Of a stretch of DNA of 64,000 bases, positions 5,075-36,624 are shown piece by piece. The stretch covers positions 75,778 through 139,777 of the forward strand of contig JACOZV010000001.1 of NCBI GenBank assembly GCA_016181175.1, written 5' to 3'. Below the pieces are notes generated by a model. It searched no databases, was not told the origin of the DNA, and saw only the letters and a program-made list of their open reading frames with translations. How positions within the stretch are numbered: position 1 is the stretch's first letter; each line of letters opens with the position of its first letter. Source of the stretch: Candidatus Yanofskybacteria bacterium (lineage in GTDB: Bacteria; Patescibacteriota; Minisyncoccia; 2-02-FULL-40-12; IGHO2-01-FULL-4-A). The translations under genes and the position numbers were made by a program.

Positions 5075-5086
5075 GCTTATCTAAAT

Positions 5087-12264: not shown

Positions 12265-12335
12265 GGGCCCGTCGTAAAATGGTATTATACGGCATTCGCA
12301 TTGCCGGGTCGGGAGTTCGATTCTCCCCGGGTCCA
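12265..12335 (+). tRNA. tRNA-Ala(CGC) with G3:U70; no encoded CCA
   Basis: Acceptor GGGCCCG/CGGGTCC with G3:T70 wobble, perfect anticodon stem CGGCA/TGCCG, loop TTCGCAT, T-loop TTCGATT. Confidence 0.85.
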
Positions 12336-12719
12336 CAGTTAATTTGAAAAAATAGGGATATGTTTGATGTACATGAAATATCGTGGCAATAGAATGTTTT
12401 TAATTATTTATGGAAGTTTAGTAAGCTTTTAATTTTGGTTATCGTGATATCAATTTCAAAATATAAAATATTTTTAAACCTCTTTAAATTTAACCGTGTA
12501 TGTAAGCATATGCGGTATATATTAAATTCATAGAAGACTTTTGTTAATCTCTAACAGCAACAAACTGTTTTAAAATTACAGTGAGAAATTGGGCATGAAG
12601 ACCATTCCGGGTAAGTTTTTCTTTGCCGTTTAGCGTATTTATCAGTAAAGTAAAAAATACCCTTATTCTACTTAATTTTTAAGGATTTGTTTGGATACCG
12701 TGATTTTGTTTGCTGTGGA

Positions 12720-12755
12720 TAAGTTTTTTCTTGATTTTAAAATGCGTGGTATAAT
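12720..12755 (+). promoter_or_regulatory. Candidate promoter with extended -10 (TGgTATAAT) for the giant surface-protein locus
   Basis: TTCTTG-16 nt-TGGTATAAT about 70 nt upstream of the GTG at 12824, within a 480-bp AT-rich intergenic region. Confidence 0.35.
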
Positions 12756-12823: not shown

Positions 12824-15800
12824 GTGTCTTTTATTACTTTGTTTGAGACGCAGGAACAATTAGAAAAATCATTGGAATCAATCGATTATTCGTCGGTTAA
12901 TTTTTTTGTTAAAGACGGAAAAAGATTTATTGAGGCGTCTTTTCTCGCCAAAGAGTTTGGCTACGAACCGGGTCATGTTGCAAGATTGGCTAGACAAAAT
13001 AAGATTGATTCTTTTTACGACCAGCCATCAAGGCGCTGGTACGTTACTAAGGAATCTTTGGCAAAATATCAGGAGCAGGCGCACTTGAATAAAAAACTCG
13101 CCGGTTTAAAAAGCGCCAATTTAGTCAAACCAATTATTCAGCAAACCACAATTGCCCCCCAGGAAAAAGCAATTTCTGTTGAAACAGATTTGGAAGCGGG
13201 TCAGTTGCGGCTTGCCGAAACAGGCCGTACAGTTCTTTCAGAGGAATCTGCTGACATCTCAATTGATAACGATGCAGTTTCTTCACCAGTTCTTTCTGAA
13301 TCAGTTCTTTCTAATTTTCATACTCACAGTCAGTATTCAGCTAGTTCTCGCCTTAAGGCCGCTGTTACGGCAATGTTTGCAACAGCGGCCTTTATATTTT
13401 TGTTAATTTTTGGAATGACAGTTTTGCCTAAGGATTTAAGTTTGGTTAAGGATCTTACAAGCAAACTTTCGGCTGTCCCGACATTTTTTCTGGAGAATCA
13501 TGGGACTGTTTCCAGACCTGCGTTTTTGCCGGTAAAACCAACCGGTCAGTATCTTAATCTTGCCGTCGTTTTTTACCAGGATTTTATTGAAGAACCAATT
13601 GAAAAATTTTTTGATTTTTATGAAAACGGACCGGTTCTGTCGCCGTTGGTAGCTCCCAAAGATTTTTACCTGACAGTGGTTCCGCAACCCAAGCCGAAAA
13701 TTAATTTTTCATTTTTATACAATTTTAAAAATTTATTTTTTGCTCCAGTCGAAAAACTCGCTGATTCCAGTGTTGGTTTTACCGAACAAATTTTAATCAT
13801 TTGGGGCAAAATGAGCCAAATAGAGATACTGCCGGCAGAGACAAAATCAGTACCTCTTTTTTCACAAGTAAAAATAACTAGTCCGAATTTTGCTTCTATC
13901 GCAGATTCTATTGCAGATCAAAGTTTTATTAAAAATTTTAAGCAAGTTTTAAATAACGAAAAGTTGGCGCTGCCGTCGCTTAATCTCATTTCAACTCAAG
14001 GTTTGGCAGGTGGTTTGAACAAAGGTTTTGCGGACTTGTCCCAAGCCGCAGACACTTTTTCGTTCTTGCCGAAATTGCCTGACAGAGTAACTGGTTTTTT
14101 CTCGGATCTTAAAGAAATTATCCTGTCTCCGCTCAAAGATATTGCCAACTACGGTGACAATTTAACAGAGCAGTCACCAACCTTTCCTGATCAAATAAGT
14201 CAGCCAGAATCATCGCCAGCAGGAGTCAAGCCGCCGACTACTTTTTCTCCGGCAAAGTCATCCGGTCCAGTATATGTTGCCACCCCGATTGATCAGAGTT
14301 TCATCAAAAAATTGGTAAAGCAATTTTTTGATGAAGAAAAATCTGCGCTTACCCCTCTAAATCTTATTTCAGTCCAAGGTTCCGTTGATGACTTAAATCA
14401 AAAACTTGCTGATCTGGTTTCGCGTGTCAATCAAATTCCGCCTCCACTCCAATACATAGGTGGTGGCGGTGGTGGTAGTACAACCACGGTTGGTGGGGGC
14501 GACGCCCAAGTTGCCGGTTCTAAATTAACGGTTGGCGTCACAGTGGTTAATAGCGGTTCAATTGGTACGACATCCGGTAATTTTTCTATTGATTCCGGCG
14601 GTGGCACAACGACTATTTCAGACAACCTAACCGTAACGGGCTTACTCTCTGCTTCCACCGCATCGTCACACTCTTTTATTGGTGATTTATCAATTAGTGA
14701 CGATATTGAGTTAACCGGTGATGCTTCCGCTTCCGCTTTTTTCGGTGCCGGGCTTAACGCCATGACCGGCACAACTGGTTGTTCTGGTGCTTCTGCTGAC
14801 AAACTTCTATACAATGCCACCACTGGCAAGTTTTCCTGCGGTTCTGATCAAAATAGTGGCGGTGGTGGCGGCGCTCCATTAGGCATTGAGATAGTAAATT
14901 CCGGAGCTGCCTTTGGCACCCATTACGGTTCAATATCTTTTGACGCCAGCCATTTTACAGTATCTCTTGCCGACCTAAGCGCCTCTTCTTCATATGTCCG
15001 TCTTGACTGGGGAGCCGGCGGTCCCGCTTCCTTATCACAGGATGAGACTGTAGCCGGCAAATGGCTCTTCAACTCTGCCTCCACCCAATTCAATAACCTA
15101 CTAGAATTAAACGGCACCGCTTCAGTATCCGTAGCCAACACCAATTTCAACATCAATCTAAATGGAACAGGTGACTTTGTTATCCAAGATGCCGGTTCAA
15201 CAGTATTCACAGTTACTGATACAGATACCATAACCCTAAACAACGGATCTGCTGACCTAGTTAGTATTACTGGCAATGCATCAATCTCCTCCAATCTAGA
15301 ACTCACCGGTACCGGCTTCGCCTCCGCCTCCTACTTCTATGCCCAACCAGGGACAGCTGCTTTACCTGCTTTCGCTTTCGGTAATGATACAGATACAGGA
15401 ATATTCAGGTCAGCCGCAAATCAATTGGGTCTTGCCACCAATGGTGTAGAAAGATTGACCATTGATCCTTCTGGTTATGTTGGTATTGGTACAACCAGTC
15501 CAACTACAAAATTTGAAGTCCAAGGTACTGCTTCAGCATCTAATTTCTTAACCGTTGGTGCGATTCAAGTTGCCGGCGGAGTCTCAAAGACATTTTCCAG
15601 ATTCGGACTGGATGACACCGGCCACAATTTAATAGCCGCCTCTGATTTGCTTGTAAGCGGAATGTTGGAAATTAATAGCAACACCTTCTTTGATGCCAGT
15701 GCAAGTGTTGCAGTTAATTTTGATGTAGGAAGCGGAGCAAACGTAATTAAGATTAGGCCTAACGCTGGCAACAATTCTGGTTTTCGCTTGGAAGGTAATG

Positions 15801-16276
15801 CGAGAAATATTAAAAGATTTACAATGTGGCCTGAATTTGCCGGAGCAGTAATGACTGGCAATACGACAAATAGTGTTGGAACTATGACTTCTGATAATGA
15901 GTCTTCGTCTTCATTCAGGAGTTATTACCAATGGACTGCGACATCAGCTACAACACAGGAATACAAAATATTTGTGAAGGTTCCAGTACCCAACGATTTC
16001 AGTGCATTTAATACTGGAGTAAAGGTCGGTGCCTATAAGAGTAATGCTAATGAGAGGATTTTGTTTAGCATAAGGGATACGGCTAACGCCATTTCTAATA
16101 TTGCCAGTGTTAGCGTGGCGACCTCGGCTGAAAACTGGACACTAACCACATCTTCAACACCAACAGGTACTTATGCTTCGGGCAGCGATATGATTTTCAT
16201 ATTTGAAATGCTTTCTAGCTCTAGCCAGAGGGTACGGCTAGGTTCAATAAGTTTTGATTATTACAGTAAGTTTTAA
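12824..16276 (+). CDS. Giant membrane-anchored surface protein 1 (1150 aa): cytoplasmic N-terminal domain, one TM helix, Gly/Ser/Thr-rich extracellular region
   Basis: TM segment AAVTAMFATAAFIFLLIFGMTVL near residue 185; poly-G runs; Thr/Ser/Asn/Gly-rich beta-rich C-terminal two-thirds; GTG start. Confidence 0.7.
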   Translation: MSFITLFETQEQLEKSLESIDYSSVNFFVKDGKRFIEASFLAKEFGYEPGHVARLARQNKIDSFYDQPSRRWYVTKESLAKYQEQAHLNKKLAGLKSANLVKPIIQQTTIAPQEKAISVETDLEAGQLRLAETGRTVLSEESADISIDNDAVSSPVLSESVLSNFHTHSQYSASSRLKAAVTAMFATAAFIFLLIFGMTVLPKDLSLVKDLTSKLSAVPTFFLENHGTVSRPAFLPVKPTGQYLNLAVVFYQDFIEEPIEKFFDFYENGPVLSPLVAPKDFYLTVVPQPKPKINFSFLYNFKNLFFAPVEKLADSSVGFTEQILIIWGKMSQIEILPAETKSVPLFSQVKITSPNFASIADSIADQSFIKNFKQVLNNEKLALPSLNLISTQGLAGGLNKGFADLSQAADTFSFLPKLPDRVTGFFSDLKEIILSPLKDIANYGDNLTEQSPTFPDQISQPESSPAGVKPPTTFSPAKSSGPVYVATPIDQSFIKKLVKQFFDEEKSALTPLNLISVQGSVDDLNQKLADLVSRVNQIPPPLQYIGGGGGGSTTTVGGGDAQVAGSKLTVGVTVVNSGSIGTTSGNFSIDSGGGTTTISDNLTVTGLLSASTASSHSFIGDLSISDDIELTGDASASAFFGAGLNAMTGTTGCSGASADKLLYNATTGKFSCGSDQNSGGGGGAPLGIEIVNSGAAFGTHYGSISFDASHFTVSLADLSASSSYVRLDWGAGGPASLSQDETVAGKWLFNSASTQFNNLLELNGTASVSVANTNFNINLNGTGDFVIQDAGSTVFTVTDTDTITLNNGSADLVSITGNASISSNLELTGTGFASASYFYAQPGTAALPAFAFGNDTDTGIFRSAANQLGLATNGVERLTIDPSGYVGIGTTSPTTKFEVQGTASASNFLTVGAIQVAGGVSKTFSRFGLDDTGHNLIAASDLLVSGMLEINSNTFFDASASVAVNFDVGSGANVIKIRPNAGNNSGFRLEGNARNIKRFTMWPEFAGAVMTGNTTNSVGTMTSDNESSSSFRSYYQWTATSATTQEYKIFVKVPVPNDFSAFNTGVKVGAYKSNANERILFSIRDTANAISNIASVSVATSAENWTLTTSSTPTGTYASGSDMIFIFEMLSSSSQRVRLGSISFDYYSKF

Positions 16277-16293
16277 AAAATAATTTTTTAACT

Positions 16294-19200
16294 GTGTCCA
16301 AACATCTAAAAATCATAATATTCTCACTTTTCTTGGTCGCTGGCTTTACTATGAAGTCAGATTTTGCTTCTGCTGCATCCCGTTATTGGGTAGGCGGGGG
16401 ATCATCAACAAACTGGAATGCTACCGGCCCCACTAATTGGTCAGCCACATCAGGAGGAACTAATAATGACACAGTTCCCAATTCTACTGATGATGTTTTT
16501 TTCAATTCCAGTTCCGGTACCGGTAATTCCGTAATTTCTGCATCTATTACCATCAACTCTTTTGATGCTACTGGATATACTGGAACCCTGACCCACAATG
16601 CCAGTGTTACCCTGACGATTTCTGGGAGCGGGGTAGTTTTCAAACTAGCATCGGGGATGACATATACAAAAGGAGGTAATACGAGTTCTGCCCTTTCCTT
16701 TACCGGCACATCGGGTACTACGATGATAACAACAGCAGGGAAGACTATCGGTAAGATAACTTTTAATGGCGTGGGAGGATCATGGCAATTACAGGATGCC
16801 TTAAATGCTGCAGGTACCGCTTCGCAAATTATTTTAACTAGTGGTAACTTTGATTCCAATAATTTTAATGTGACAATGGGATCTTTTGTTTCCAGTAATT
16901 CCAATACTCGTACGCTGACAATGGGATCTAGTACTTGGAAGCTTCAAGATGGCGGAACTATCGTTTGGAATCTCGCAACCGTCACGGGTCTTAGTTTGAA
17001 TGCGGGTACCTCTACGATTGTGATTTCTAGTACGAACGGTAGCGGAAAAACATTCGCTGGTGGGGGACAAACATATTATAATGTTGTTTTTTCGGGGGAC
17101 AATATCAACATTTCGGATTCCAATACTTTTAATAATTTTGCTATTAATAATGCTGGCCTGACAAATGGGTTAGCCTTGGGGGTAGGGAAGACACAGACTA
17201 TTATGGGATCATTTACGACTAATGGATCTGCGGGAAGTTTAGCGATTCTTAAAACTACTACATCGGGTAGTACTGCAACTTTGTCAAAAGCGTCGGGAAC
17301 AGTTTGCGTTGACTACATGAGTATTAAAGACTCAACCGTTAGCGGTGGCGCCTCTTGGTATGCCGGAGCCAACTCCACGAATGTGTCAGGCAATACAGGT
17401 TGGACATTCTCTGCTTGCCCCGGTGGAGACACCACCCCTCCCACAGTTTCAATATCTTCCCCAACAGCAGGATTAACAGTTTCAGGCAATACCACGGTTT
17501 CAGCCACCGCCTCTGATAATGTAGGAGTATCTGGCGTCCAATTCAAATTAGATGGAGTAAATCTTGGAGTAGAAGATATTGACTCCCCATATTCAATAAC
17601 CTGGGATACAACCGCTACTACCGATGGCTCTCATGATCTTACCGCTACCGCTCGTGATGCATCAGGCAATCAAACTACTTCATCTGCCGTGACGGTTACA
17701 GTAAGCAATCCCACCCCTACCCCCACCCCCACCCCCACCCCCACCCCTACCCCCACCCCTACACCTTTGCCGGCAACTGGTATTCCCGTTATTTTCTTTA
17801 CCGATCTTGAGTCGGGTCCCAACACAGGCGGAGAGAACAACAATGGCGCCTTTGTCACAATTTACGGCAAAAACCTTTCCGGCAGTACTGTTACAGTGGG
17901 AGGAGGATCAGCAATTATTAAACTAACCTCAACCCCATATCTCTGGTATGAAAAAATGGCAATTCAATTAGGAGCGAGTACTAATTCTGGCAATATCATA
18001 GTTACTAATGCATATGGCTCATCCAATAACTTACCATTTACTGTGAGAGCGGGTAATGTTTATTGCGTTTCAATGACTGGTGCAGACTCCAATAATGGAA
18101 AATTTACTACCGAAACACCGCCATCAGCTGGCGTACAAGGATGTTGGCTAAATGTATACAAGGCAAAAAATACAATTGCCGCAGGTGACATCGCCTATAT
18201 CCTGGATGGTGCGAACCAGACAACCCCTGAACCAGGAACGGGAGTAGCACTTCAAATTTCTAACGGTGGAAATTTGGGGAATCCGAAGGCTTTGATTGTC
18301 TACCCAGGTGGCACTTCTGTTTTAGGTGCCATAGGTAGCGGCGACTGGGTGGGTTCTGTGGGCGGTATTAAGGTACTGGGGAGTGCCAGCAATGCAGACT
18401 ATATTACCATCGCCGGGTTTACATTCAAAACTTTTAGTAGTGCGCTCTCAATTTCTGGTAACACATATCCCAGCGCACAACACTGGAGATTTATCGGCAA
18501 TTATCTGACCTGTCCCGGGGGTGATGGGCAGTCCGCTTGTGCCTCCCCGGGTTCCATGGAATACCTGGAGTTTTTAGGAAACGAGATTACGGATGCTGGC
18601 TGCAAAGAAGGGGGAACGCAGAATTGTAAACTCATTAGCCCCGCAAACACAATCACGACAGTTGGCACAACACTGACGCTGAGTGGTTTTACTTCTGGCG
18701 TGAATCTCGGTGCTAGAATCTGCGTAACGACCTGCGCATCAGGGCAAGTTCGTCATATCGTAGCGGCTGGACCAAATAACCTAAACTGGATACTCGATAG
18801 CGCATTCACGTCTGATGTTACGGATTCGACATTTCAGTTTCGTTACGGATTAACATCGAAGCAGTACCACTCTGTTTATGTGGATAACAGTGATCACATC
18901 GAAATTGGGTGGAGCTACATCCACAACAATAACTCCTGTCGTGGGATTTTGACCAACTCGACCGGTACAACCGGTGGGCACCAACAGCACGATCTCTCTT
19001 ACCACGACAACATCATTCATCATCAAACCTGTGCCGGAATCGACCTCAACACCGTGGACCCCAATACTGGGCCAGTCGAGGTCTACAACAATTTGATCTA
19101 CCATGTCGGGACAGGGCCAACTCCACATGATGGCATCGGTAATCTTGCGTGCATTTATTCTGGTGATAATAATCGAAGCTCTCCAGGGGCTGGAACAATT

Positions 19201-22200
19201 GAAGTCTACAATAACACACTCTACGATTGCGGTTCCTATAACCCAACTTCAGGCGACAGCGGGGCGATCAATAAGTCTGGTCAAAATGAGAATATTATAA
19301 TAAACCTCCGCAACAATATTATTTTGCAAAATTCAGGAGAGGTTTATATTAAGTCTTCTGGTAACAACAATATCAACGCCCAAGTTACGGGTAGTAAAAA
19401 CCTATTTGCTATGGTTTCTGGTTCGGCTCAAGATTTATCGGGATTTACTGGTCTAACCCCCTACCTCACCCTCGACCCCCTCTTCATCAGCACAACTACC
19501 CCGGATTTCCACCTCCAATCCACCTCTCCCGCCAAAGATGCCGGTGTATTCACCACCGCCCTCTTTGACATTGATGGTATCTCTCGTCCACAAGGAGCAT
19601 CTTTTGATATTGGCGCCTATGAGTATCCATCAGGCGCAGTAGCAGACACAACCTCTCCCACAGTTTCAATAACTTCTCCAACCGACGGCTCAACCCTTTC
19701 CGGCGCTGCCAATACAATAACTGCCAATGCCTCAGATAATATCGGGGTAGTCGGCGTCCAATTCAAAATAGACGGAATCAATCTAGGTTCCGAAGATACA
19801 TCATCCCCATACTCTATTAACTGGGACACCACCACATATACCAACGGCTCTCATACCATAACCGCCGTAGCCAGAGATCCATCCAGCAATACAACAACTT
19901 CTTCAGGAGTCAGCGTAAACGTAAATAATGAAGTGGCTCCAACTCCTCCGGTCATATCTAATGTAACTGCCTCATCTATCACTACTACCGGCGCTACCAT
20001 CACCTGGACTACTGATAAATCATCAGATTCACAGGTGGAATACGGCTTAACCACCAGCTACGGTTCATCTACAACTCTTGATTCAACATTGGTTACCAAC
20101 CACTCAGTTCTATTATCAGGCCTAACATCACAAACAACCTATCATTACAGGGTTAAATCACAGGATACCCCGGGCAACCTAGCCACCTCAGGAGATTTTA
20201 CCTTTACCACCGCCACACCCCCTCCGGTAATCTCAAACGTCCAAGCTACCAATATCACCGCTACCTCTGTAACTATTACCTGGGCTACTGATCGAGCCAC
20301 GACCAGCAAGGTTAACTATGGTTTGACTTCCAGCTATACCAATTCCACGGTTAAAGACACGACTCTGGTAACCAGCCACTCCGTATCCATAGGCGGCCTG
20401 TCTGCTTCTACTCTCTACCACTACCAGGTTGAATCATCGGATTCAGGCAATTTAACTTCCGTTTCTTCCGATGCCACCTTTACCACGGCCGCCTCGGCTT
20501 TACCCGTCATCTCCAATATCCAAGCCACCAACATTACTACAAGCGGAGTCACCATAACCTGGACGACTGACATATCCTCTGATTCGCAGGTAGAATATGG
20601 TACCACCACGGCTTATGGCTCATCCACAACTCTTGACTCCACTCTTGTTACCAGTCACAGCGTTGCCCTAACCGGCCTTTCCGCCGGCACTATATATAAT
20701 TACCGGGTCAAATCCAGCGGAGCGGTTTCAACCAACAAAACCTTTTCAACAACATCGGCTTCCGATACCACCGCCCCCGCCGCGGTTACCAATCTGGCCA
20801 GCACCGGCACAACCAGAACATCCGTTGACTTATCCTGGACTGCTCCAGGCGATGACGGTAATACCGGCACCGCTACTTCCTATGATATGCGCTGGCTGAC
20901 CGTCCCTATAACTGACTCCAACTGGAGTTCCGCCAATATTCTTACCGGTTTGCCTGCGCCAAAAACGGCCGGCACAACCCAGACATATACGGCCATTGGC
21001 TTAACGGCTAACATCACTTACTACTTTGCTTTAAAAACAAAAGATGAAAGCAATAATGTTTCAGCGTTATCAAATGTGATAAGCGCTAAGACCAAAACCG
21101 ATACCGCCACTGGCGGCGGAGGCGGCGGAGCTTCTTCTTTTGACGCCTCGCCCGGGCCGGTTAAGATTTCCAGAATTGGCGAAGCCGACAGTCAGATTCT
21201 GTTAGAATGGCGTAATCCAACCGATGAGGACTTTGTCCGCGTACAAATTGTTGTTAACGAAAACCGCCAACCGTTAAATCAGGATGACGGCAGGATAATA
21301 CTGGAAGAAAACACTACCAAATTCCTCCATGTCAATCTGCGAAACGGCAAAACCTACTATTTTAATATCTACGCCTTGGACTTGGCCAAAAACTTTTCCG
21401 AACCGGTTAAGCTCAAAGCTGTCCCCCAAGAAGGAGTATTATCTTTCGCCGAAAACATAGAGCCGCTTGATGTCGCCCAAACAACCCAATACATTGCCCC
21501 GAAGATAATAACCGAAGAAGACTTCTCCGTTTTCAGGCCAAGGATATTCCCCAAAGCTGTTTTAATCAGATACGCCTTTGATAAGAACGTCTATTACATA
21601 GAAAACGGCAAGAGAAGACTGGTACCCAATTATGCCACCCTCCTTAAACTGACCAATAACAATCCAAACAAGGTTTTAACGGTATTGGATAAAGAACTGA
21701 TAGACGGTTATTCATCTGCCGCTCCTCTTGAAGAAAAAGACATCACCTCTTTATCAAAAGAAATTACCGCCCAATCAGCTTTGGTTAAAACCAAAGACAA
21801 ACCGACTGTCTACCTGGTAAATACAATAGACAAGACCAAACAAACCATTCCCACGCTTGCGGTATTCTATTCCTACGGCTTTTCATTCAAAAACGTATCT
21901 GAAACCAAACAGGAAGACGTGGATGCCCTAACTGAAGCAGGAGAATTAACTCTTAAAACATTTCCAAATGGTTTTCTCATGAAATCTCCCGACAGTTACA
22001 AGGTTTACATAATCCAAGATGGCCAAAAGAGATGGATCAAAACCCTCAAGCTCTTCCTGGGCTTCAAATACATTGATAAAGACGTAACTACCCTGCCTAA
22101 AGAATTAATAGAAGCCTACCCAACAGGATCAGATATTGAAAAGCAGGATGAAACATTACCCAGCAAATTACAAATCAAAGTTCCGGCTACCATCCATGCT

Positions 22201-22437
22201 GACGGCACCCTGGTTAAATTAAAAGATAACTACAAGGTTTACCTTGTAGACAAAACCCAGCTTAAATGGATTGAAACCCAGGAAGAGTTTAAGACCAAGA
22301 AATATAAATTAAAAGACGTGATTGCTATTACCAAGGACGAGTTTGAGTTGTATGGGATGGGGGAGGAAGAACCCATCGAAGAGATAACCACGGGGATAGA
22401 GATGGGAATAATCCCCTCGTCAAGTGAGGGGCAGTAA
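16294..22437 (+). CDS. Giant secreted multidomain surface protein 2 (2047 aa): Ig-like domains, (PT)n linker, parallel beta-helix region, 3x FN3-like domains, 4x C-terminal repeats of about 55 aa
   Basis: Signal peptide MSKHLKIIIFSLFLVAGFTMKSDFASAAS; Ig-like GVSGVQFKLDGVNLG…; PTPTPTPTPTPTPTPTP; three VISN…ITWTTD…YHYRVKS FN3 repeats; C-terminal YKVY…GYxxxxVxx…EL repeats. Confidence 0.75.
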   Translation: MSKHLKIIIFSLFLVAGFTMKSDFASAASRYWVGGGSSTNWNATGPTNWSATSGGTNNDTVPNSTDDVFFNSSSGTGNSVISASITINSFDATGYTGTLTHNASVTLTISGSGVVFKLASGMTYTKGGNTSSALSFTGTSGTTMITTAGKTIGKITFNGVGGSWQLQDALNAAGTASQIILTSGNFDSNNFNVTMGSFVSSNSNTRTLTMGSSTWKLQDGGTIVWNLATVTGLSLNAGTSTIVISSTNGSGKTFAGGGQTYYNVVFSGDNINISDSNTFNNFAINNAGLTNGLALGVGKTQTIMGSFTTNGSAGSLAILKTTTSGSTATLSKASGTVCVDYMSIKDSTVSGGASWYAGANSTNVSGNTGWTFSACPGGDTTPPTVSISSPTAGLTVSGNTTVSATASDNVGVSGVQFKLDGVNLGVEDIDSPYSITWDTTATTDGSHDLTATARDASGNQTTSSAVTVTVSNPTPTPTPTPTPTPTPTPTPLPATGIPVIFFTDLESGPNTGGENNNGAFVTIYGKNLSGSTVTVGGGSAIIKLTSTPYLWYEKMAIQLGASTNSGNIIVTNAYGSSNNLPFTVRAGNVYCVSMTGADSNNGKFTTETPPSAGVQGCWLNVYKAKNTIAAGDIAYILDGANQTTPEPGTGVALQISNGGNLGNPKALIVYPGGTSVLGAIGSGDWVGSVGGIKVLGSASNADYITIAGFTFKTFSSALSISGNTYPSAQHWRFIGNYLTCPGGDGQSACASPGSMEYLEFLGNEITDAGCKEGGTQNCKLISPANTITTVGTTLTLSGFTSGVNLGARICVTTCASGQVRHIVAAGPNNLNWILDSAFTSDVTDSTFQFRYGLTSKQYHSVYVDNSDHIEIGWSYIHNNNSCRGILTNSTGTTGGHQQHDLSYHDNIIHHQTCAGIDLNTVDPNTGPVEVYNNLIYHVGTGPTPHDGIGNLACIYSGDNNRSSPGAGTIEVYNNTLYDCGSYNPTSGDSGAINKSGQNENIIINLRNNIILQNSGEVYIKSSGNNNINAQVTGSKNLFAMVSGSAQDLSGFTGLTPYLTLDPLFISTTTPDFHLQSTSPAKDAGVFTTALFDIDGISRPQGASFDIGAYEYPSGAVADTTSPTVSITSPTDGSTLSGAANTITANASDNIGVVGVQFKIDGINLGSEDTSSPYSINWDTTTYTNGSHTITAVARDPSSNTTTSSGVSVNVNNEVAPTPPVISNVTASSITTTGATITWTTDKSSDSQVEYGLTTSYGSSTTLDSTLVTNHSVLLSGLTSQTTYHYRVKSQDTPGNLATSGDFTFTTATPPPVISNVQATNITATSVTITWATDRATTSKVNYGLTSSYTNSTVKDTTLVTSHSVSIGGLSASTLYHYQVESSDSGNLTSVSSDATFTTAASALPVISNIQATNITTSGVTITWTTDISSDSQVEYGTTTAYGSSTTLDSTLVTSHSVALTGLSAGTIYNYRVKSSGAVSTNKTFSTTSASDTTAPAAVTNLASTGTTRTSVDLSWTAPGDDGNTGTATSYDMRWLTVPITDSNWSSANILTGLPAPKTAGTTQTYTAIGLTANITYYFALKTKDESNNVSALSNVISAKTKTDTATGGGGGGASSFDASPGPVKISRIGEADSQILLEWRNPTDEDFVRVQIVVNENRQPLNQDDGRIILEENTTKFLHVNLRNGKTYYFNIYALDLAKNFSEPVKLKAVPQEGVLSFAENIEPLDVAQTTQYIAPKIITEEDFSVFRPRIFPKAVLIRYAFDKNVYYIENGKRRLVPNYATLLKLTNNNPNKVLTVLDKELIDGYSSAAPLEEKDITSLSKEITAQSALVKTKDKPTVYLVNTIDKTKQTIPTLAVFYSYGFSFKNVSETKQEDVDALTEAGELTLKTFPNGFLMKSPDSYKVYIIQDGQKRWIKTLKLFLGFKYIDKDVTTLPKELIEAYPTGSDIEKQDETLPSKLQIKVPATIHADGTLVKLKDNYKVYLVDKTQLKWIETQEEFKTKKYKLKDVIAITKDEFELYGMGEEEPIEEITTGIEMGIIPSSSEGQ

Positions 22438-22445
22438 GATGACAA

Positions 22446-25400
22446 ATGTTAAATCTAATTTTCCAAAAACTGCTCAAAAAGAAAACGATTGACCGCTTGA
22501 TTCTAGCGGTCAAAAAGTTTATAGCCGGCACGACGATTTTAATGTCGGTGTTTTACGGCACTCTTTATTATGCCCTAGTCACATTAGCTAGCGAAAACGA
22601 ACAAGTTCCCAAACCACTTGTCAGTCAGACAGGAGATCCGACCAGTAATCCCGGCAGATATTATTTAGAGTCTCTTAAAAACAGAGCTGATGAAATTGTC
22701 GGTCTTACCTTTACAAGCCACGATAATTACCAAGAATTTGTTTTCGCTGGCAATAAAATTATTGAGCCAGCATCAATTACTATAAACGACAAACCATACG
22801 TGCCATTCAGATTGCTTTTGTCTTCAAGCAGTAAGGACTACGAAGTTGAACTCAAATCCAAGAAAGGGACGCAAATAATTTCTTTAGCCGGAGATCGTTT
22901 CGAGTATTCTATTTTTGAAAAACAACAAAAAGGTTTTTTGAAATTGGCTTCCGTTAATCCGAAATTTCAAATAAAAAATTGGGGGACCGTGGAAGAACCT
23001 CAGTCAACACCCAGCTGGCAAGATATTATTTTTACAAATCCAGTATCAACCAGTTGGTCAGTATATGACAATTACATAGAAATCAAACAAAATAGCAATT
23101 TTATTACAGGAGAAAAAAATTACAACGCTTGGTTAAAGGTAAAACTTGGTTTTGATAGTTCAGATTATATTAACTCCTGGAATTTCGGCGTATCAGGCCA
23201 GGAAAATATTACACCCGCAGATGAATTTAGAATTAGACTGCAGACTGTGCTTGCGGGTAAAATCAAACATCAGACAAATGATAGCGGTAACTTGGAAGTT
23301 GGTATAGAGAATCCAAAAAGTAATACAGCTGAGGATGTCATAGATTTGGACAATTTATTTCTAAATCCAACGGCTTCGGTATCTCAAACGCCGAGTATAT
23401 TACCAGAAGCTACGGTCGGTTCGATACCAGTGGAACCAGAAGTAACTCAATTACCAAGCGCCACCACAGAACCTTCGCTGATTTCGACACCCGAGCCGTC
23501 TCTTACTCCGGCTGCATCTGTGTCAGAATCGGGCAATGAAGCAAGCCCTTTGTCTGAAGAACAAGAGACGATCCCGACTCCGCATTTTGAGATTACTTCA
23601 ACCCCATCCAGCGAGAGTCCAGCCCTAGAATCAATACCGGAGCAGACGCCGGAGCCGATTACTACGTCCCTGCCGGAAACTACTGGCAATCAAGACGAAA
23701 CCACGCCTGAACCAAGCCCCACCTCGCTATTAAATAAATTCTTTGGAATCAATATTGTAAATGCAGAAGAAGTGACAGAGCAACCAGTAGAAGCAAGCAT
23801 AGACCCGGTCATTATACCAGAAAATACAACTAATCCAGTCTCCGAAATACAAGAGCCTACTTTGTCGGAAACTGATACCGATGAAACTGCGAATTCTATT
23901 ATAGCGGAACCGATACTCCAACCACTGATTGAGGGTGCTTCAAGTATTATTAATCAAGTTACCGATAGTTTAACTAATTTTGCAGAAAGTCCGAGTATAT
24001 CATTGCCGACTTTGGAACCGGAGACAGTTTCTAACAGCGAGCCGGTAACTATTTTTGAAGAACCTATTGTTGCAAGCTCAGATCTTTCGGAGCCCCCCCA
24101 AAAGCCGCAATCAATTCCAGCCCAAATTGCAAACGTATTAAATAGTTTGAATCTTTTTTCTGTTACTCAAACCACCATTTCTGAATTAAATTTTGGTTTA
24201 GGAGACGAGGGTGGGAGCAATCTCCAGATAGATGAGAATAATAACATCCTAACAACAGAGGTAAGTTTGAATTCCAGCAACAACGGGGTTTCAGTTATAC
24301 TTTCAGATATCGGTGTGGCCGTTTATAACACCGGTATCTGGATAGCTTCGGGCGATGGCAGTAAATCAACAGATTTCAAACTTCACTTCAATTCCAGCTA
24401 CGGCGGCGCGATTGATGAGTTGTATCTTGGCACCGACTTTCATACCAACAAAGTGGCGACTCCGCAGGCAGGATCGGGGGGGCTGACATTGATTGAGCAG
24501 GATCATTTTTCCCAAGCGGAAACCAGAAGTTCAACCCTGGAAGTGATTGAGCAATCCAAGGTCAGGATAGTCATAGACAACACCTTTAGACTTGGCCCGG
24601 AGGCTGGCATAGCCGAAAAGTGGTCAATTTATGCCACCGGCCGGATAATAAAACAAACGATTTTTGATAAATATAAAACTGGCGAGGAAAGGTGGTATCT
24701 CAATGCTGCCAAAACCGGTTTTGATTTATCAGCGGGTTATAACTACAATCAGCTGATTTTAAACACCAAACTGGAACCCAATTCCAAAGACCTGATGTTG
24801 GTTTGGCAAAATCCAAGTTTGTTGACCTCTTCTTCTTTTGAGGCAGGCGAAACGGATAGTTCATATACAACCGTTGCGAAATTAAACCGTCAGCCGTGGA
24901 CCTATACTGAATACCAAATGATTGATTTGATGCAAGAGGATTTGAGCATGATTGATAAAACCTCAATAGATGAAAGAGCGAATGATTATCGCAATCCCGA
25001 CAATCCAGAATTCACGGTCGGCAGTTTCAGAAAGGTCAATCAGCAATATTTTTCTTATGAAATGGATTCGGCCGGCAGTAAAAATCATGTAGTATTCAAA
25101 ATGGACGGTTCACAAATCGCAAGATTCCATCCGGTATTTGAAATTCACGAATGGAACAACCCAGACCTTAGCGCAATCAGATCATACATGAACCAGAAAA
25201 ATATGGTTGAGAATCGTGACTATATTGTTGATTTCAGGAATAGTGATCCCGGCACTGGTATTTTGATATTCCACTTTCTTGGCACAGTACGCACCAATTC
25301 AGAATTAAGCGCTGACGGGTTTGTAACTTTTGATATTGATCCGGAGGTTACTCCGGGTTCGGGGATACTGGCTTATGGAGGAGGGAATATGCAGACAAGT

Positions 25401-27908
25401 TTTGTGACTACCGATGCTACAGGAAATAACTTGGGAGCTTTTGCCAGCGTTTCAGCGAGCACATTTAATCCGTTTTGGGTGGTTAATCGTGCCAGTCCGG
25501 TTGGCGGTAGTCAGGCCTCCGGTTCGGACAATGAACACTTGGTAGGCGACCTTAACGGCACTGGCAATCTTGAGATGCTGCGCTGGAACGGTACCGCTTG
25601 GGCGTTGGATTGGACGGAAAACAATGTTGGTTCACAATCGCTTGATGTAAGAGCGTATGATATTGCTTATGAAAATAGCGGTGAAGCGGTGGCGGCTTGG
25701 TCCCAAACTAACGATACAACTGGTCTTATTGAATACAGAGTTTGGAATGGGATTAGTTGGGGAGCGTCAACAAGCTTCACCGTGCCGACCACAAACAAGA
25801 TTGCTTGGATTGAAATGGCATCACACCCAGCCAGCGGTTCAAATCAAAATGATATTGGACTCTGCTATGTTACCGGCGGATTGAACGAAACCGGTTGTGC
25901 AGTCTGGAATGGGACTACAAATACCTGGGGCAATGCGGTGCTTAGAGAAAGCGATTCATTAAATAATAGAAAATCCGTTTCAGTATTTTACGAGCAAAGC
26001 TCTGGAGATCTTATAGAAATTTCGGGTATAGAACATACCACAAATGGTGGTGGTGTGGTTTTGACCTATTCAAGTTGGGATGGCTCAAGTTGGACGGCAA
26101 CATCCTCTTTCAGTAGCGGCAGCGGAACGGGGGATAGTGCCAATGATCTTAGTTGCGCTCCAGCTCCTTTTTCGCTCAACGGCACGACTACGAAGAATAA
26201 GGCGGTATGCCTTGCTTATGATGGTTTTGCAGATGACGTGTGGTCGTTTATATGGGACGGTTCGGCGCCTAACAACGAGAATTCAAATACTACAACAAGT
26301 ACTGTTGCCGCCGGTTTACTTATTTCTGGCGGAGTCAATTGGATTATTGATACGAGAGCTATGGGGCTAATTATTATCAATGTTAGTGCGGGCAGCAACC
26401 AAGTTGATTATGAGTACTGGGATGATACTGCTGGCGCTTGGACGCTAAATCAGACATTTACGCATACCACTGGTACTAAAAGAAGTTTTCAGGTTGAACC
26501 AAATCCAAACCAGAAAAACACGGCAACAGTTCTTATAAGTGACAATAATACCAATCTCTTTGCTTATGAAGCCAGTGTCAGCGAAACCACAGTTACTTTT
26601 AATAACTTGAATAATGGTAATGCAATAACTCAAGATTTAACGAATGTTGGCAAAAACCAAGCATTTATGATGGCCTACGACCTATTCCCCAACCCTACCC
26701 AGACGCATTTCCAATGGTTGAATGACGATGCGGGGTTGAACTCTGGGACTGCGGCTGCCGCCCAGGATGCGACATTAACGGGATTAACAAACGGTTCAGT
26801 TAAGAGATTGAGGGTTGAGATTTCAAACGAAGGCGCAGGGAGCAAAAGCAGTAATTTCCAGCTGGAGTTTGCCAAAAAAGGTTCTGGTTGCACTCAAGCT
26901 ACGCTTTCCGCCGGTTGGAATTACAGGGAGATACATACTGATTCGGTAACTGCTTCAGACGCTTTTGATATACAAGATTCAACCAACTTCAGCAATGGGG
27001 CGGCGACAACAGCATCATTGAGTGCCAGCGACCCTACCTTTGTAGCGGGTCAAGGCATAGATTCCGCATCATCCACCAGCGCCATTGCTTTGAATGGCAA
27101 TAACTATACCGAGATTGAATATGCTTTGCAGGCGAATACCAACGCCCAGTCCACGACTACCTATTGTTTCCGCTTGACTGATGGCGGGGCGAGTACTTCG
27201 TTCACTTATCAGAGATATGCGGAGGTTCAGACGGGGACGATTGGAGTTTCCGTTCCAACCTATACCGAAGATTTCTTCAGGTTCTATATAAATGTTGACA
27301 ATATTTCTCCAACCGATCCTTGGCCAACTAGCTCTAATGATTTAGCCGAAAACGCCACAATGTCAGCGCATTTTGCAAGCATTGCCAGCGGCAGTATTAT
27401 GCGTTTGCGAACCAACATGTTAGTGGGAACGGCTACTCTAAATGCCGCCTCGCAAACATTCCAACTGCAATATGCGGAAGGATTCAACTGCGGAGCATTA
27501 TCCGGTGGCAGTTGGGCTTCAGTAGGGGCGTCTACAAGTAATACAATCTGGCGATTTGGATCTAATGGAAGCGTAACTGACGGCACGGCCCTATCAAGCG
27601 GCGGCACCCTTTTATCCAATTCTGATAATGGCGCGCGAGCTACCTACGAAGAGGGCAATCCATCAGCAGTCAATCCCAATGCCGTAACCAGCGGCCAGCG
27701 CATGGAACACGACTGGTCTGTTCAAAATAATGGTGCCGTATCCGGCGCGGCATATTGTTTTCGTATTATCCGTAATTCCGGTACAACCCTCGAAACCTAT
27801 AACAGGTATCCTCAAGTAATACTAGGCCCGTCAACCGACCAGATTTTACGCCACGGTGCTTTCTTCAGCGAAGGAGTTGAGCAAGGGTATTACTGGTCAG
27901 GAATTTAG
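22446..27908 (+). CDS. Giant membrane-anchored surface protein 3 (1820 aa): mucin-like S/T/P/E-rich stalk and C-terminal repeated jelly-roll-like modules
   Basis: N-terminal TM helix FIAGTTILMSVFYGTLYYALVTL; about 150-aa low-complexity TEPS region; repeated C-terminal modules ending …YCFRL…YQRY / …YCFRII…YNRY. Confidence 0.7.
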   Translation: MLNLIFQKLLKKKTIDRLILAVKKFIAGTTILMSVFYGTLYYALVTLASENEQVPKPLVSQTGDPTSNPGRYYLESLKNRADEIVGLTFTSHDNYQEFVFAGNKIIEPASITINDKPYVPFRLLLSSSSKDYEVELKSKKGTQIISLAGDRFEYSIFEKQQKGFLKLASVNPKFQIKNWGTVEEPQSTPSWQDIIFTNPVSTSWSVYDNYIEIKQNSNFITGEKNYNAWLKVKLGFDSSDYINSWNFGVSGQENITPADEFRIRLQTVLAGKIKHQTNDSGNLEVGIENPKSNTAEDVIDLDNLFLNPTASVSQTPSILPEATVGSIPVEPEVTQLPSATTEPSLISTPEPSLTPAASVSESGNEASPLSEEQETIPTPHFEITSTPSSESPALESIPEQTPEPITTSLPETTGNQDETTPEPSPTSLLNKFFGINIVNAEEVTEQPVEASIDPVIIPENTTNPVSEIQEPTLSETDTDETANSIIAEPILQPLIEGASSIINQVTDSLTNFAESPSISLPTLEPETVSNSEPVTIFEEPIVASSDLSEPPQKPQSIPAQIANVLNSLNLFSVTQTTISELNFGLGDEGGSNLQIDENNNILTTEVSLNSSNNGVSVILSDIGVAVYNTGIWIASGDGSKSTDFKLHFNSSYGGAIDELYLGTDFHTNKVATPQAGSGGLTLIEQDHFSQAETRSSTLEVIEQSKVRIVIDNTFRLGPEAGIAEKWSIYATGRIIKQTIFDKYKTGEERWYLNAAKTGFDLSAGYNYNQLILNTKLEPNSKDLMLVWQNPSLLTSSSFEAGETDSSYTTVAKLNRQPWTYTEYQMIDLMQEDLSMIDKTSIDERANDYRNPDNPEFTVGSFRKVNQQYFSYEMDSAGSKNHVVFKMDGSQIARFHPVFEIHEWNNPDLSAIRSYMNQKNMVENRDYIVDFRNSDPGTGILIFHFLGTVRTNSELSADGFVTFDIDPEVTPGSGILAYGGGNMQTSFVTTDATGNNLGAFASVSASTFNPFWVVNRASPVGGSQASGSDNEHLVGDLNGTGNLEMLRWNGTAWALDWTENNVGSQSLDVRAYDIAYENSGEAVAAWSQTNDTTGLIEYRVWNGISWGASTSFTVPTTNKIAWIEMASHPASGSNQNDIGLCYVTGGLNETGCAVWNGTTNTWGNAVLRESDSLNNRKSVSVFYEQSSGDLIEISGIEHTTNGGGVVLTYSSWDGSSWTATSSFSSGSGTGDSANDLSCAPAPFSLNGTTTKNKAVCLAYDGFADDVWSFIWDGSAPNNENSNTTTSTVAAGLLISGGVNWIIDTRAMGLIIINVSAGSNQVDYEYWDDTAGAWTLNQTFTHTTGTKRSFQVEPNPNQKNTATVLISDNNTNLFAYEASVSETTVTFNNLNNGNAITQDLTNVGKNQAFMMAYDLFPNPTQTHFQWLNDDAGLNSGTAAAAQDATLTGLTNGSVKRLRVEISNEGAGSKSSNFQLEFAKKGSGCTQATLSAGWNYREIHTDSVTASDAFDIQDSTNFSNGAATTASLSASDPTFVAGQGIDSASSTSAIALNGNNYTEIEYALQANTNAQSTTTYCFRLTDGGASTSFTYQRYAEVQTGTIGVSVPTYTEDFFRFYINVDNISPTDPWPTSSNDLAENATMSAHFASIASGSIMRLRTNMLVGTATLNAASQTFQLQYAEGFNCGALSGGSWASVGASTSNTIWRFGSNGSVTDGTALSSGGTLLSNSDNGARATYEEGNPSAVNPNAVTSGQRMEHDWSVQNNGAVSGAAYCFRIIRNSGTTLETYNRYPQVILGPSTDQILRHGAFFSEGVEQGYYWSGI

Positions 27909-27930: not shown

Positions 27931-28653
27931 CTAAATTTTAATTTCTGCCAGTAATTTTTGATTTATCTGGTCCAACTCTTTTAGCACCTGCTCATATAAA
28001 GGCCGGAGATCGGATTGCAGTTGTTTGATGTTTTGAATGTATTTAAGGCGGAGTTGATTACTGGTTCTAAACTGGTCTCTGTTGGTTGCCTCAACCAGCT
28101 TATCTACTAAATCAATAATGGGTTGGAAATGGGCAGTTATTTTTTTTGTGTAGTTGGCTAGTTCTGGAGTGTCGTCATATTTTTTAAGCCGGATCGTTAT
28201 TTGTTTGAGGGCATATTGAGTGAGGGAAAGGCGGTACATGAAGTCGCCCTTATTTTCTGATACCGAACGGCTGTTCAAGTCATTTTCAGGATTATATTCT
28301 AAAATTTTAGGTAGCAAGTCGCCAAACTCCTGGCGGTAGTTATAATATTGACTCAACGATTCCAAAGCAAGATAACTTTTTTCGTATGACAAAACATCTA
28401 ACGATAGACGCCGAGAGTTTTTGGTAATATCGGCTAATATTTTTTTAGTTTCAGAAATTTTCTTGATTTTTGCCGTCCCTTCGGTGCTGAGCTTCTGTAA
28501 GTTATAAATTTGCGCCCGTAAATTTTGTGCCAACTCTTTTTGGCGGATACGATAGTATATTGGCCCTAGCAACTGAAAAGCACCAAAAAATACAAGTCCA
28601 GCAATAGCCGAATAAATTAAACGCCTATATTTGAATAATTTGTCGTACCACAT
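27931..28653 (-). CDS. Hypothetical membrane-anchored coiled-coil protein
   Basis: 240 aa; N-terminal TM helix, then a helical/coiled-coil-rich region; no recognisable motif. Confidence 0.5.
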   Translation of the reverse strand: MWYDKLFKYRRLIYSAIAGLVFFGAFQLLGPIYYRIRQKELAQNLRAQIYNLQKLSTEGTAKIKKISETKKILADITKNSRRLSLDVLSYEKSYLALESLSQYYNYRQEFGDLLPKILEYNPENDLNSRSVSENKGDFMYRLSLTQYALKQITIRLKKYDDTPELANYTKKITAHFQPIIDLVDKLVEATNRDQFRTSNQLRLKYIQNIKQLQSDLRPLYEQVLKELDQINQKLLAEIKI

Positions 28654-29308: not shown

Positions 29309-29644
29309 ATGAAATATGATCTTGAAGAAAGGTGTGCGAAATTTGGTGAAAATATAATTTTATTTTTGAGTGGTTTAAAAAAAGATGAAATTAATCGGCC
29401 GCTTGTTGGCCAACTGATCAGATCGGCTACAAGTATCGGTGCCAATTACATGGAAGCAAATCAGGCTGCATCCAAAAAAGATTTTATTAATAAAACAAGA
29501 AATAGCCAAAAAGAAGCTAATGAGAGCAAGCATTGGCTAAGAATGATTGCTGTTGCTTCGCCGAATCACAAAGAAAGTTGTAGAAAACATTGGCAAGAGG
29601 CCCATGAGTTGACGTTAATTTTTGCCAAAATTAGCAAGAGTTAG
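29309..29644 (+). CDS. Four-helix-bundle protein of the 23S rRNA intervening-sequence protein family (TIGR02436-like; Avd-like fold)
   Basis: 111 aa; DLEERCAKFGENIILF…VGQLIRSATSIGANYMEANQAASKKDFINK…ESKHWLRM matches the S23p/4HB family consensus. Confidence 0.8.
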   Translation: MKYDLEERCAKFGENIILFLSGLKKDEINRPLVGQLIRSATSIGANYMEANQAASKKDFINKTRNSQKEANESKHWLRMIAVASPNHKESCRKHWQEAHELTLIFAKISKS

Positions 29645-34612: not shown

Positions 34613-35151
34613 GGCCATAATCAAATATATGAATAAATTCCACAATAATTTCATAACAAAAAGCGGCTGAAGCCAAGTTCTTAATTTGCGTTTACAAGCA
34701 GCCGCGTAAATCGCGGATTTTTTATCAAAATTGAATATATTAGAGCCATTATTGGCTGTCGTCGGGCATCTCCTTACGGAGGTGCCCGACGGAAGCTAAC
34801 ACTAAACCGATTGAATAGATTGCAATTTAAAAAATAAATAGTTAGCGGGTATCCCGGTTAGAGCTTGCGATTGCCACAAGTGGCAATCCACCTCTAACGG
34901 GATTAAAAAATTGCATTTCTGCATTTAGAAATGAGTTCCAAAATGCAGAATAAGTAGATTGAATTCGATCTATCAATAGAGATCGAGGATTTAATCTTGT
35001 AAGGAATTATTAAGGGCGTATGGAGGATGCCTTGACACCAAAAGGCGACGAAGGACGTGGCGTGACGACGATATGCTTCGGGGAGCCGTCTAGCGGGCTT
35101 TGATCCGGAACATCTCAGTAGCCAGAGGAAAATAAAACAAACCCCGCACCT

Positions 35152-35652: not shown

Positions 35653-35686
<34 letters not shown>

Positions 35687-35799
35687 GGTTAGGGGAGTGA
35701 AATAGAACTGAAACCATATGCCTACAAAGAGCCGAAGCCCTTCCCGTCGCAAGACGGTCAGGGTGACGGTGTGCCTATTGAAGAATGATCCAACGAGTT

Positions 35800-36582: not shown

Positions 36583-36624
<42 letters not shown>

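Follow-up and report, generated by a model that had tools for sequence, protein, structure and literature searches.

Three very large genes follow one another on the same strand of a Candidatus Yanofskybacteria chromosome, which raises the question as to whether their products form one apparatus by which a bacterium of the Candidate Phyla Radiation (CPR) attaches to another cell, or serve some other end at the surface. To our knowledge, type IV pili apart, little is understood of the means by which CPR bacteria recognise their partners and stay attached to them. The DNA analysed here is a stretch of 64,000 nucleotides (the window) from a metagenome-assembled genome (MAG); the products of the first and third gene, which we call P1 and P3, are identical to NCBI HYT61_00540 and HYT61_00550, encoded on a contig of 374,535 bp. 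A sequence-only reading of the window had singled out the three genes as candidates for host attachment, and its outline is borne out: there are three co-oriented open reading frames (ORFs) of 1150, 2047 and 1820 aa, separated by 17 bp (P1-P2) and 8 bp (P2-P3) and together taking up ~15 kb, or 23.6% of the window.

12824-16276, + strand: P1 ORF, GTG start, 1150 aa
16294-22437, + strand: P2 ORF, GTG start, 2047 aa
22446-27908, + strand: P3 ORF, ATG start, 1820 aa

On balance we consider it probable that the locus is an operon for a cell-surface attachment apparatus made of mosaic, exchangeable parts. The surface location of the three proteins is well supported by their predicted anchors and export signals, and the earlier view of them as extracytoplasmic, modular, adhesin-type proteins of a CPR bacterium holds. 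Host attachment, and the docking of a P1 'head' on a P3 'tail', are steps that we infer beyond that. Our analysis adds three elements to the sequence-only reading: a predicted seven-bladed beta-propeller in P3, a probably cytoplasmic N-terminal domain in P1, and a conserved pairing of P1 and P3 into which P2 appears to have been inserted.

Head-fibre, module-tail and propeller cassette

The pairing of P1 and P3 rests on the C-terminal parts of the two proteins, which comprise the following features.

15779-16273, + strand: P1 C-terminal 'head', aa ~986-1150 (~165 aa), delimited by alignment of cassette heads
26706-27260, + strand: P3 module C1, ~190-aa Ig-like beta-sandwich (fold matches)
27261-27830, + strand: P3 module C2, ~190-aa Ig-like beta-sandwich (fold matches)
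27831-27905, + strand: P3 C-terminal 'RHG' tail PSTDQILRHGAFFSEGVEQGYYWSGI, ~25 aa, family consensus PGxxxLMRHGNFFxxxxExGFFWxD

Word-indexed searches with full-length P1 and P3 gave almost nothing, and an exhaustive profile search was needed; run with P3 aa 642-1820, it returned 2034 cluster representatives with E<=1e-3, of which 325 had E below 1e-30. Among the matches listed, the RHG tail is C-terminal to within a few residues in 37/41 proteins, and its profile has no match in NCBIfam, Pfam or PDB. On the P1 side, a search with the C-terminus gave 46 fibre homologues in Patescibacteria, of which seven have the head and one has a Peptidase_S74 domain. The head is recognisable by the motif ...PE(F/Y)xGAxxTG...GTMTSD...YYxW...(D/E)Y.I...VP.(D/N)F...Y..(K/S)F, and its profile likewise finds no relative in Pfam, NCBIfam or PDB.

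The genes for these two protein ends lie side by side. Seen from the head, all three head loci with long contigs (L003, L004 and L005) have a gene with C-modules and an RHG tail 0.2-3.4 kb downstream on the same strand, and in each a third gene follows, encoding a secreted protein of ~240-290 aa (~240-300 aa for the cassette in general) with TolB/PD40-like propeller repeats. Seen from the tail, a metagenome scan seeded on the RHG tail only gave 29 usable loci. Where at least 500 bp of upstream sequence was present, a head-bearing ORF preceded the tail gene on the same strand, mostly 0-1 kb away, in 14 of 15 loci; where at least 500 bp was present downstream, the third gene followed in 23 of 28. 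The set contains duplicates across samples (L031 equals L032, and L046, L047 and L003 are approximately the same), and with these allowed for, the adjacency of head and tail genes is far from chance. The cassette fibres are up to at least 2800 aa long, and their N-terminal anchors are of the ordinary kind, without the N-terminal domain of P1. In the window, P1 aa 986-1150 align with the heads of these fibres, and P3 ends in a C-module followed by a ...RHG.FF....E.G..W tail. The same picture comes from the flanks of the close P3 orthologues: the one that is 51% identical (L002) is preceded, with no P2 between, by the end of a P1-like gene (70% identity across the last 266 aa), and upstream of the one that is 77% identical lies the end of a P2-like gene. 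From gene order, we take P1 and P3 to be a conserved gene pair and P2 to be a lineage-specific insert.

The head, the ~190-aa module with its RHG tail and the small propeller are families that are numerous in metagenomes and have no Pfam, NCBIfam or PDB relative. A literature search of incomplete coverage returned no paper describing the cassette, which is weak evidence.

Two cassette-bearing contigs have features of their own. L056 (JAWCQU010000027.1, 9170 bp) carries a complete cassette and is binned as Candidatus Anstonellales archaeon (DPANN), an assignment by binning alone; either ultra-small symbionts of the two domains share the cassette or the contig was misbinned. Near the head/tail cassette of L004, positions 888-2771 encode a 627-aa protein with an N-terminal HTH_17 helix-turn-helix (HTH) domain (E 8e-10), a transmembrane (TM) helix and an extracellular dCache_1 domain, the design of a membrane-tethered one-component regulator.

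Architecture of the three proteins

P1 divides, ahead of its head, into four parts.

12824-13348, + strand: P1 N-terminal ~175-aa domain, probably cytoplasmic, possible winged HTH; R/K residues before the TM helix
13361-13438, + strand: P1 TM helix, aa ~180-205 (Kyte-Doolittle mean 2.37 over 19 residues)
13727-14416, + strand: P1 internal duplication, aa 302-405 / 430-531 (self-BLAST of fragments, 40% identity, E 1.5e-13)
14459-15778, + strand: P1 G/S/T-rich fibre shaft with tail-fibre 'VGIGTTSPTTKFEV' capping-loop repeat (PDB and PHROG matches)

The sequence-only reading had P1 as a TM-anchored, fibre-like protein. The fibre character is supported by solved structures of mosaic adhesive trimer (MAT) fibres and by PHROG; the anchor is also there, as an internal helix behind an N-terminal domain. 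The repeat YVGIGTTSPTTKFEV aligns with capping-loop repeats of Bdellovibrio MAT fibre tips (phmmer against PDB: 8ond, which is Bd2133, E 2e-8; 8ojn, E 5.6e-6; also 8on4 and 8oml) and with phrog_28766 'tail fiber protein' (E 3.9e-7), and Pfam detects no Peptidase_S74 in P1. The shaft is probably trimeric. Internal repeats in these proteins were found by BLAST of fragments, since whole-protein self-BLAST hides them; the duplication in P1 ends in a short coiled-coil-like stretch before a GGGGGG hinge (Matrilin_ccoil, E 0.15, a hint only). No N-terminal signal peptide was seen, the TM helix is single, and the ~175 aa that precede it are hydrophilic and end in R/K residues, so that the N-terminus of P1 should be cytoplasmic.

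An N-terminal domain on the inner side of the membrane invites a different account of the locus, namely that P1 serves first of all to sense contact, as a transcription factor tethered to the membrane whose winged HTH is controlled by what the fibre touches, in the manner of ToxR or CadC, P2 and P3 being its co-regulated cargo. The domain does give an HTH_17 match (E 4e-4) and is conserved, at 35% identity, in the P1 orthologue of the nearest GTDB genome (L006); a dCache_1 sensor gene lies directly 5' of that orthologue, and the HTH_17-TM-dCache_1 fusion beside the L004 cassette means that an HTH-TM-ectodomain design exists in these organisms. However, the match scores 21 bits against a Pfam cut-off of 27, and Pfam does not recognise HTH_17 in the L006 orthologue. 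The domain does not align with the bona fide HTH_17 of L004 either, its profile has no match in PDB, and the head-fibres of other cassettes have plain N-terminal anchors in place of the P1 domain. An HTH in P1 is unproven, and we find the sensor account distinctly unlikely as an explanation of the locus.

P3 carries its C-modules and tail at the end of a long N-terminal and central part.

22497-22586, + strand: P3 N-terminal signal-anchor, aa ~18-47, after a K/R-rich N-terminus; nearly invariant in three orthologues
22593-23345, + strand: P3 juxtamembrane domain, aa ~50-300, conserved in the orthologue alignment; no Pfam match
23346-24125, + strand: P3 P/S/E/T-rich stalk, aa 301-560 (P 15%, S 14%, E 14%, T 12%), with large indels among orthologues
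24153-25445, + strand: P3 domain A, aa ~570-1000, with homologues only in P0002, P0003, P0013 (Taylorbacteria) and P0021
25473-26687, + strand: P3 domain B, aa ~1010-1414, 7-bladed beta-propeller with W(N/D)GxxW blades (fold matches)

The N-terminal hydrophobic anchor and the stalk agree with what had been read from the sequence before. We read the hydrophobic segment as a signal-anchor; the alternative is a long signal peptide cleaved at TLA/SE. The repeated modules that the earlier reading described are also present, as two paralogous units, C1 and C2, each ending YCFR...Y(N/Q)RY. Their predicted fold is that of Ig-like sandwiches, and no jelly-roll lectin or carbohydrate-binding module came up as a structural match; the lectin/jelly-roll assignment is not confirmed. 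Sequence searches with P3 found nothing in Pfam, NCBIfam or PDB, and comparison of the C-modules with a viral structure library gave TM-scores of 0.2-0.3, which are not meaningful. The last ~1250 aa of P3 are a well-conserved block among orthologues, and the parts of this block are mobile units: domain A is rare, domain B occurs in up to 11 copies in proteins of 6719 and 7926 aa, and P3-type C-modules reach 21 copies per protein.

P3-type C-modules also occur, in 10-13 copies, in the Chloroflexota-type proteins P0005, P0006 and P0007 (2050-2536 aa). P0005 combines a Pfam N_methyl prepilin match with 13 modules, and the N-termini of P0006 and P0007 are prepilin-like; the three would be giant pilin-like proteins.

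P2, which separates the two, is built from recognisable domains for a good part of its length.

16294-16374, + strand: P2 signal peptide, aa 1-27 (...SDFASA/AS cleavage), hydrophobic aa 7-25 then ASA, read from the sequence
16375-17427, + strand: P2 N-terminal domain, ~350 aa, starting RYWVGGGSSTNWNATGPTNW; no Pfam, NCBIfam or PDB match
17428-17703, + strand: P2 Big_7 Ig-like domain 1 (Pfam Big_7, E 4e-36 for the whole protein, 2 stretches)
17710-17763, + strand: P2 (PT)9 linker, aa 473-490, seen in the sequence
17764-19644, + strand: P2 core (~630 aa), probable right-handed beta-helix ending in a choice-of-anchor-Q domain (fold inferred)
19645-19923, + strand: P2 Big_7 Ig-like domain 2 (best Pfam stretch aa 1122-1191; PDB 9kvu, E 1.3e-5)
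19945-21438, + strand: P2 FN3 array of three near-identical units, a fourth and a divergent fifth (Pfam fn3, E 6e-27, 4 stretches)
21544-22374, + strand: P2 four C-terminal ~62-aa repeats, aa ~1751-2027 (repeat alignment and hidden Markov model, HMM)

P2 is a modular secreted protein of an unremarkable type. Its signal-peptide-like N-terminus and two Big_7 domains agree with the secreted, Ig-like protein of the sequence-only reading, and several details of that reading need adjustment: the PT linker is (PT)9 and not (PT)8, the FN3 units number four clear ones and a divergent fifth instead of three, and the four C-terminal repeats are ~62 aa long, not ~55. Both Big_7 (123.9 bits) and fn3 (94.1 bits with 4 stretches) are above the Pfam gathering score. 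The Big_7 duplication is visible in the DNA as a repeat (17427-17494 / 19644-19711), and the FN3 units are 48-79% identical by self-BLAST of fragments, with Pur_ac_phosph_N also matched and the fifth unit reaching E 1.9e-4 with fn3. That the C-terminal repeats bind the cell wall, as had been proposed, finds no backing: neither Pfam nor NCBIfam gives a match to wall-binding families (SLH, LysM, SH3b, CW_binding, PG_binding) at E<=5, and the repeat profile has chance-level matches only in PDB. The repeat HMM finds four copies in P2, two at the C-terminal end of P0036, a further giant surface protein, and one in a gene fragment upstream of P0002 (a P2 orthologue fragment, L001); the repeats also match phrog_9616, of unknown function, at E 4e-4. 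This recurrence fits a retention role without demonstrating one.

The P2 core matches NF041518 choice_anch_Q (E 1.9e-11 at aa 1068-1111) and, sub-threshold, DUF5123 (E 2e-4), and PbH1-like 'NN.I' repeats are visible by eye. Domains of the choice_anch_Q and DUF5123 kind usually follow beta-helices. A probable beta-helix core with such ends is typical of pectate-lyase-type enzymes and phage depolymerases, and P2, perhaps even the whole locus, could be mainly degradative, a beta-helix polysaccharide lyase or hydrolase with FN3/Ig spacers that opens the sheath or wall of a partner for nutrients. A link with the degradation of walls has been made for giant proteins of predatory Omnitrophota (bioRxiv 10.1101/2023.11.21.568195), and NCBIfam gives a weak exoglucanase match, confined to the FN3 region. 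We rate this as very unlikely, with no catalytic family for P2 in Pfam, NCBIfam or PDB, and with P2 absent from one P1-P3 locus (L002).

The tRNA-Ala slot and its surroundings

If the locus determines what the cell binds, its content might be expected to turn over between relatives, as the sequence-only reading had proposed to examine. The variable slot begins with the following two features.

12265-12336, + strand: tRNA-Ala(cgc), conserved left border of the variable slot (ARAGORN, Rfam); also precedes the P1 orthologue in L006
12337-12823, + strand: AT-rich non-coding spacer, probable promoter region, 487 bp, 27.1% GC against 42.3% for the window

The spacer, which had been noted before as an AT-rich promoter region, is confirmed as AT-rich and contains promoter-like hexamers at 12716-12743 (consensus match only). 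With RmuC as the synteny anchor, we compared the slot between genomes. The nearest GTDB genome, L006, is a Yanofskybacteria MAG with an RmuC 89% identical, and its gene order is DUF5715, tRNA-Ala(cgc), a 339-aa dCache_1 gene, a 1663-aa P1 orthologue, RNaseH-like and RmuC, with no P2 or P3. Three parts of P1 recur in the orthologue, namely the N-domain, the TM helix and the base of the shaft (P1 521-792, at 53% identity); the final ~650 aa of the orthologue bear no relation to P1, and the P1 head (aa 986-1150) is replaced. The related Paceibacteria MAG L010 (RmuC 82% identical) has a different fibre of at least 2033 aa at the slot, with an L006-type C-terminus, and relatives beyond L010 have ordinary genes there. 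No relative came up when the GTDB representative genomes, which do not include this species, were scanned with P3 patterns. As a P1 orthologue stands at the same tRNA-Ala in L006, the slot is ancestral, and we read the tRNA-Ala site as an ancestral fibre locus with exchanged tip and accessory genes.

Two neighbours in these genomes merit description. The dCache_1 gene of L006 (2831-3850), between tRNA-Ala and the P1 orthologue, encodes a TM-anchored sensor without an output domain; no remnant of it was found in the AT-rich spacer of the window. The L010 fibre (1-6099) has ~20 LVIVD-like repeats (SVFVSGRYAYV...VVDISNPxxP), and its C-terminal region, common to the L006 fibre, contains the GFVPVALAGRVPVKVSTENG motif.

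This variability bears on what we see as the most serious competitor, which is nevertheless rather unlikely: that the three are structural proteins of a general envelope or S-layer type, or else adhesins for matrix and particles, concerned with cell integrity, abiotic surfaces or biofilm and not with partner recognition. Large Ig/FN3-rich surface proteins also occur in free-living bacteria, P3-type modules are also found in Chloroflexota proteins (P0005), and the fold matches are generic. Unlike a core envelope component, however, the slot content differs among genomes whose RmuC is 82-89% identical. In the closest relative, the slot contains a P1 orthologue only, and that with a different tip, so the three genes are not the syntenically conserved housekeeping or S-layer set that would have refuted the sequence-only reading. 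P1, moreover, resembles the fibres with which phages and a bacterial predator bind receptors, and tips are swapped between orthologues.

The position directly 3' of a tRNA gene, with an AT-rich border, could instead point to a prophage or mobile-island remnant integrated at tRNA-Ala that brought in tail-fibre and tailspike genes; the tail-fibre and tailspike-like features and the variation between relatives would fit. The surroundings of the locus are chromosomal and housekeeping: 5' of it lie genes for a CCA-adding enzyme, a dCTP deaminase, a DUF5715 protein and tRNA-Ala(cgc), and 3' of it a convergent 240-aa ORF, RNaseH-like and 23S_rRNA_IVP proteins, RmuC and a proton-translocating pyrophosphatase (H+-PPase). 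These flanks contain no phage structural genes, and neither integrase nor capsid nor terminase was found among the flanking ORFs scanned. There is no direct repeat of the tRNA-Ala 3' end downstream and no long repeats bound the locus; a tRNA-integrated genomic island was rejected for want of an integrase and of that direct repeat. The TM and signal anchors suit a cell surface and not a virion, L006 has a P1 orthologue beside this same tRNA, and the structural search against viral proteins gave nothing. We regard a prophage or island origin as most improbable. A diversity-generating retroelement was also considered and rejected: apart from the Big_7 duplication, 12000-34000 contains no direct repeat, no template/variable repeat pair is present, and no reverse transcriptase was found among the flanking ORFs scanned.

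Further along the window, the convergent ORF (27931-28653, - strand, 240 aa) encodes an N-terminal TM segment followed by a long coiled-coil-like part; Pfam does not match it, and L006 lacks a counterpart at this position. About 1.4 kb 3' of P3 lies a 23S_rRNA_IVP-family ORF (Avd-like four-helix bundle; 29309-29644), and ORFs of this family are also found beside or within two other cassettes (L003 8060-8422 and L056 8033-8425). The 23S rRNA region is split, with an Rfam large-subunit match at 35000-37750 that scores low for the full model, a group I intron at 39472-39753, LAGLIDADG endonuclease ORFs at 37832-38338 and 40994-41473, and 5S rRNA at 42316-42433; no 16S gene was seen beside it within the window (35000-42433 area). 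The intron-bearing 23S rRNA, together with small RpoB and RpoC genes, is consistent with a CPR genome.

Working model and comparison with known systems

In our favoured reading, an attachment apparatus of exchangeable parts, P1 would be held by one TM helix and project as a phage-tail-fibre-like, probably trimeric shaft ending in the head. P3 would be held by its signal-anchor, and the P/S/E/T-rich stalk would lift domain A, the propeller, the two Ig-like modules and the RHG tail through the wall. Because a head-fibre gene directly precedes a module/tail gene, and then a small secreted propeller gene, in many uncultivated organisms, P1- and P3-type proteins most likely cooperate on the surface. 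As a working model, the RHG tail may dock on the head, or the third protein may handle both, and the variable parts of P1- and P3-type proteins would provide binding specificity. P2 would be a later insert in this lineage: secreted, decorated with Ig and FN3 domains, its core probably a beta-helix like those of tailspikes or of proteins that bind or cleave polysaccharides, and probably retained by its four C-terminal repeats. Yanofskybacteria attach to Methanothrix filaments (PMC9600506, PMC10936435), which makes an attachment reading reasonable, and the locus is a good, though unproven, candidate for cell-to-cell attachment.

Several observations weigh against this reading. The close orthologues of P3 are only the two mentioned above, both on short Logan contigs. 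P2 sits between P1 and P3 in the window and interrupts the pair, and the third cassette gene has no homologue within the window by tblastn or HMM, so that the cassette here is atypical or incomplete. P1 and P3 each have their own membrane anchor, and a head-tail complex is therefore unneeded for retention. The fold matches of the P3 modules and propeller name no ligand, and the AlphaFold 2 model of domain A has a predicted local distance difference test score (pLDDT) <50. Finally, the P2 core has no Beta_helix, Pectate_lyase or NosD match in Pfam even at E<=5 and no match in PDB, which leaves its beta-helix as a fold put forward from other features.

A wider version of the idea is speculative, and we think it unlikely. 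The head, the RHG tail and the small propeller may be three conserved docking parts of an undescribed modular surface system of ultra-small cell-associated microbes (CPR, possibly DPANN), in which a membrane-anchored shaft would carry an exchangeable binding protein via a head-tail contact, as a cellular counterpart of phage fibre plus tip adhesin; in Yanofskybacteria the shaft might also be wired to a cytoplasmic DNA-binding domain that signals contact inward. For future work, the locus offers cloneable attachment candidates in a lineage with a known partner, Methanothrix, and with the cassette, giant proteins annotated as 'hypothetical' in their thousands become a system open to testing. Fast turnover is what one would expect of parts that determine specificity, and both the exchange of tips and the gain or loss of P2 and P3 among close relatives are in keeping with it.

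How, then, does the locus compare with known systems? Type IV pili of Saccharibacteria are the established host-binding device of CPR bacteria (PMC11623550) and have the same role as that proposed for P1-P3; P3-type modules also occur behind prepilin-type N-termini in Chloroflexota P0005. P1, P2 and P3, however, are without a prepilin motif, and there are no pilus assembly genes in the locus. Tandem giant extracellular proteins are known as Giant1-5 of Apilactobacillus kunkeei (PMC12863079) and from the giant genes of Omnitrophota (bioRxiv 10.1101/2023.11.21.568195). These are likewise consecutive, very large surface proteins with Ig-like or beta-rich modules that take up a sizeable share of a small genome, whereas P1-P3 are smaller (1.1-2.0 k aa), contain other domain families and include a conserved pair with distinctive termini. 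Domain B of P3 shares its seven-bladed fold with the propeller lectins of the PLL family (PDB 5c9o, 6gxs, 6gxr), at ~10% identity and with no Pfam match.

For P1, the closest likeness is to the MAT fibres of Bdellovibrio bacteriovorus, e.g. Bd2133 and Bd3182, which are beta-helical fibres of three intertwined chains whose exchangeable tips bind glycans of the prey, and in which a capping-loop motif, V-G-G/N-pi-x-x-P-x-x-x-L, is repeated along the shaft (PMC10769870). P1 shares the repeated capping-loop motif, in the form VGIGTTSPTxKxxV (the 8ond alignment above), and likewise has a long G/S/T-rich shaft with a tip that is swapped between orthologues, similar to NS74-like tip swapping; MAT fibres, too, are used by a bacterium living on other cells. 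MAT proteins, on the other hand, have a signal peptide and a conserved ~130-aa beta-rich base, where P1 has a probably cytoplasmic domain and a TM helix, and P1 differs further in a head without a solved relative and in a P3-type partner gene, accompanied elsewhere by a third gene. P1 thus resembles MAT and phage fibres, and as it lacks the signal peptide and the N-terminal base we do not class it as a MAT member.

Some phage long tail fibres have a separately encoded tip adhesin or assembly protein, as in T4 gp37/gp38 and the Tfa type of Mu and P2. The arrangement here is similar in that a fibre gene directly precedes a partner gene and conserved junction elements are combined with variable remainders, and P1 matches phrog_28766. 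It differs in that there is no virion context, both proteins are membrane-anchored, the partner is a very large multi-domain protein instead of a small chaperone, and the contact between the two is hypothetical. The locus belongs to the fibre-type surface adhesin systems, and the conserved cassette is its new part.

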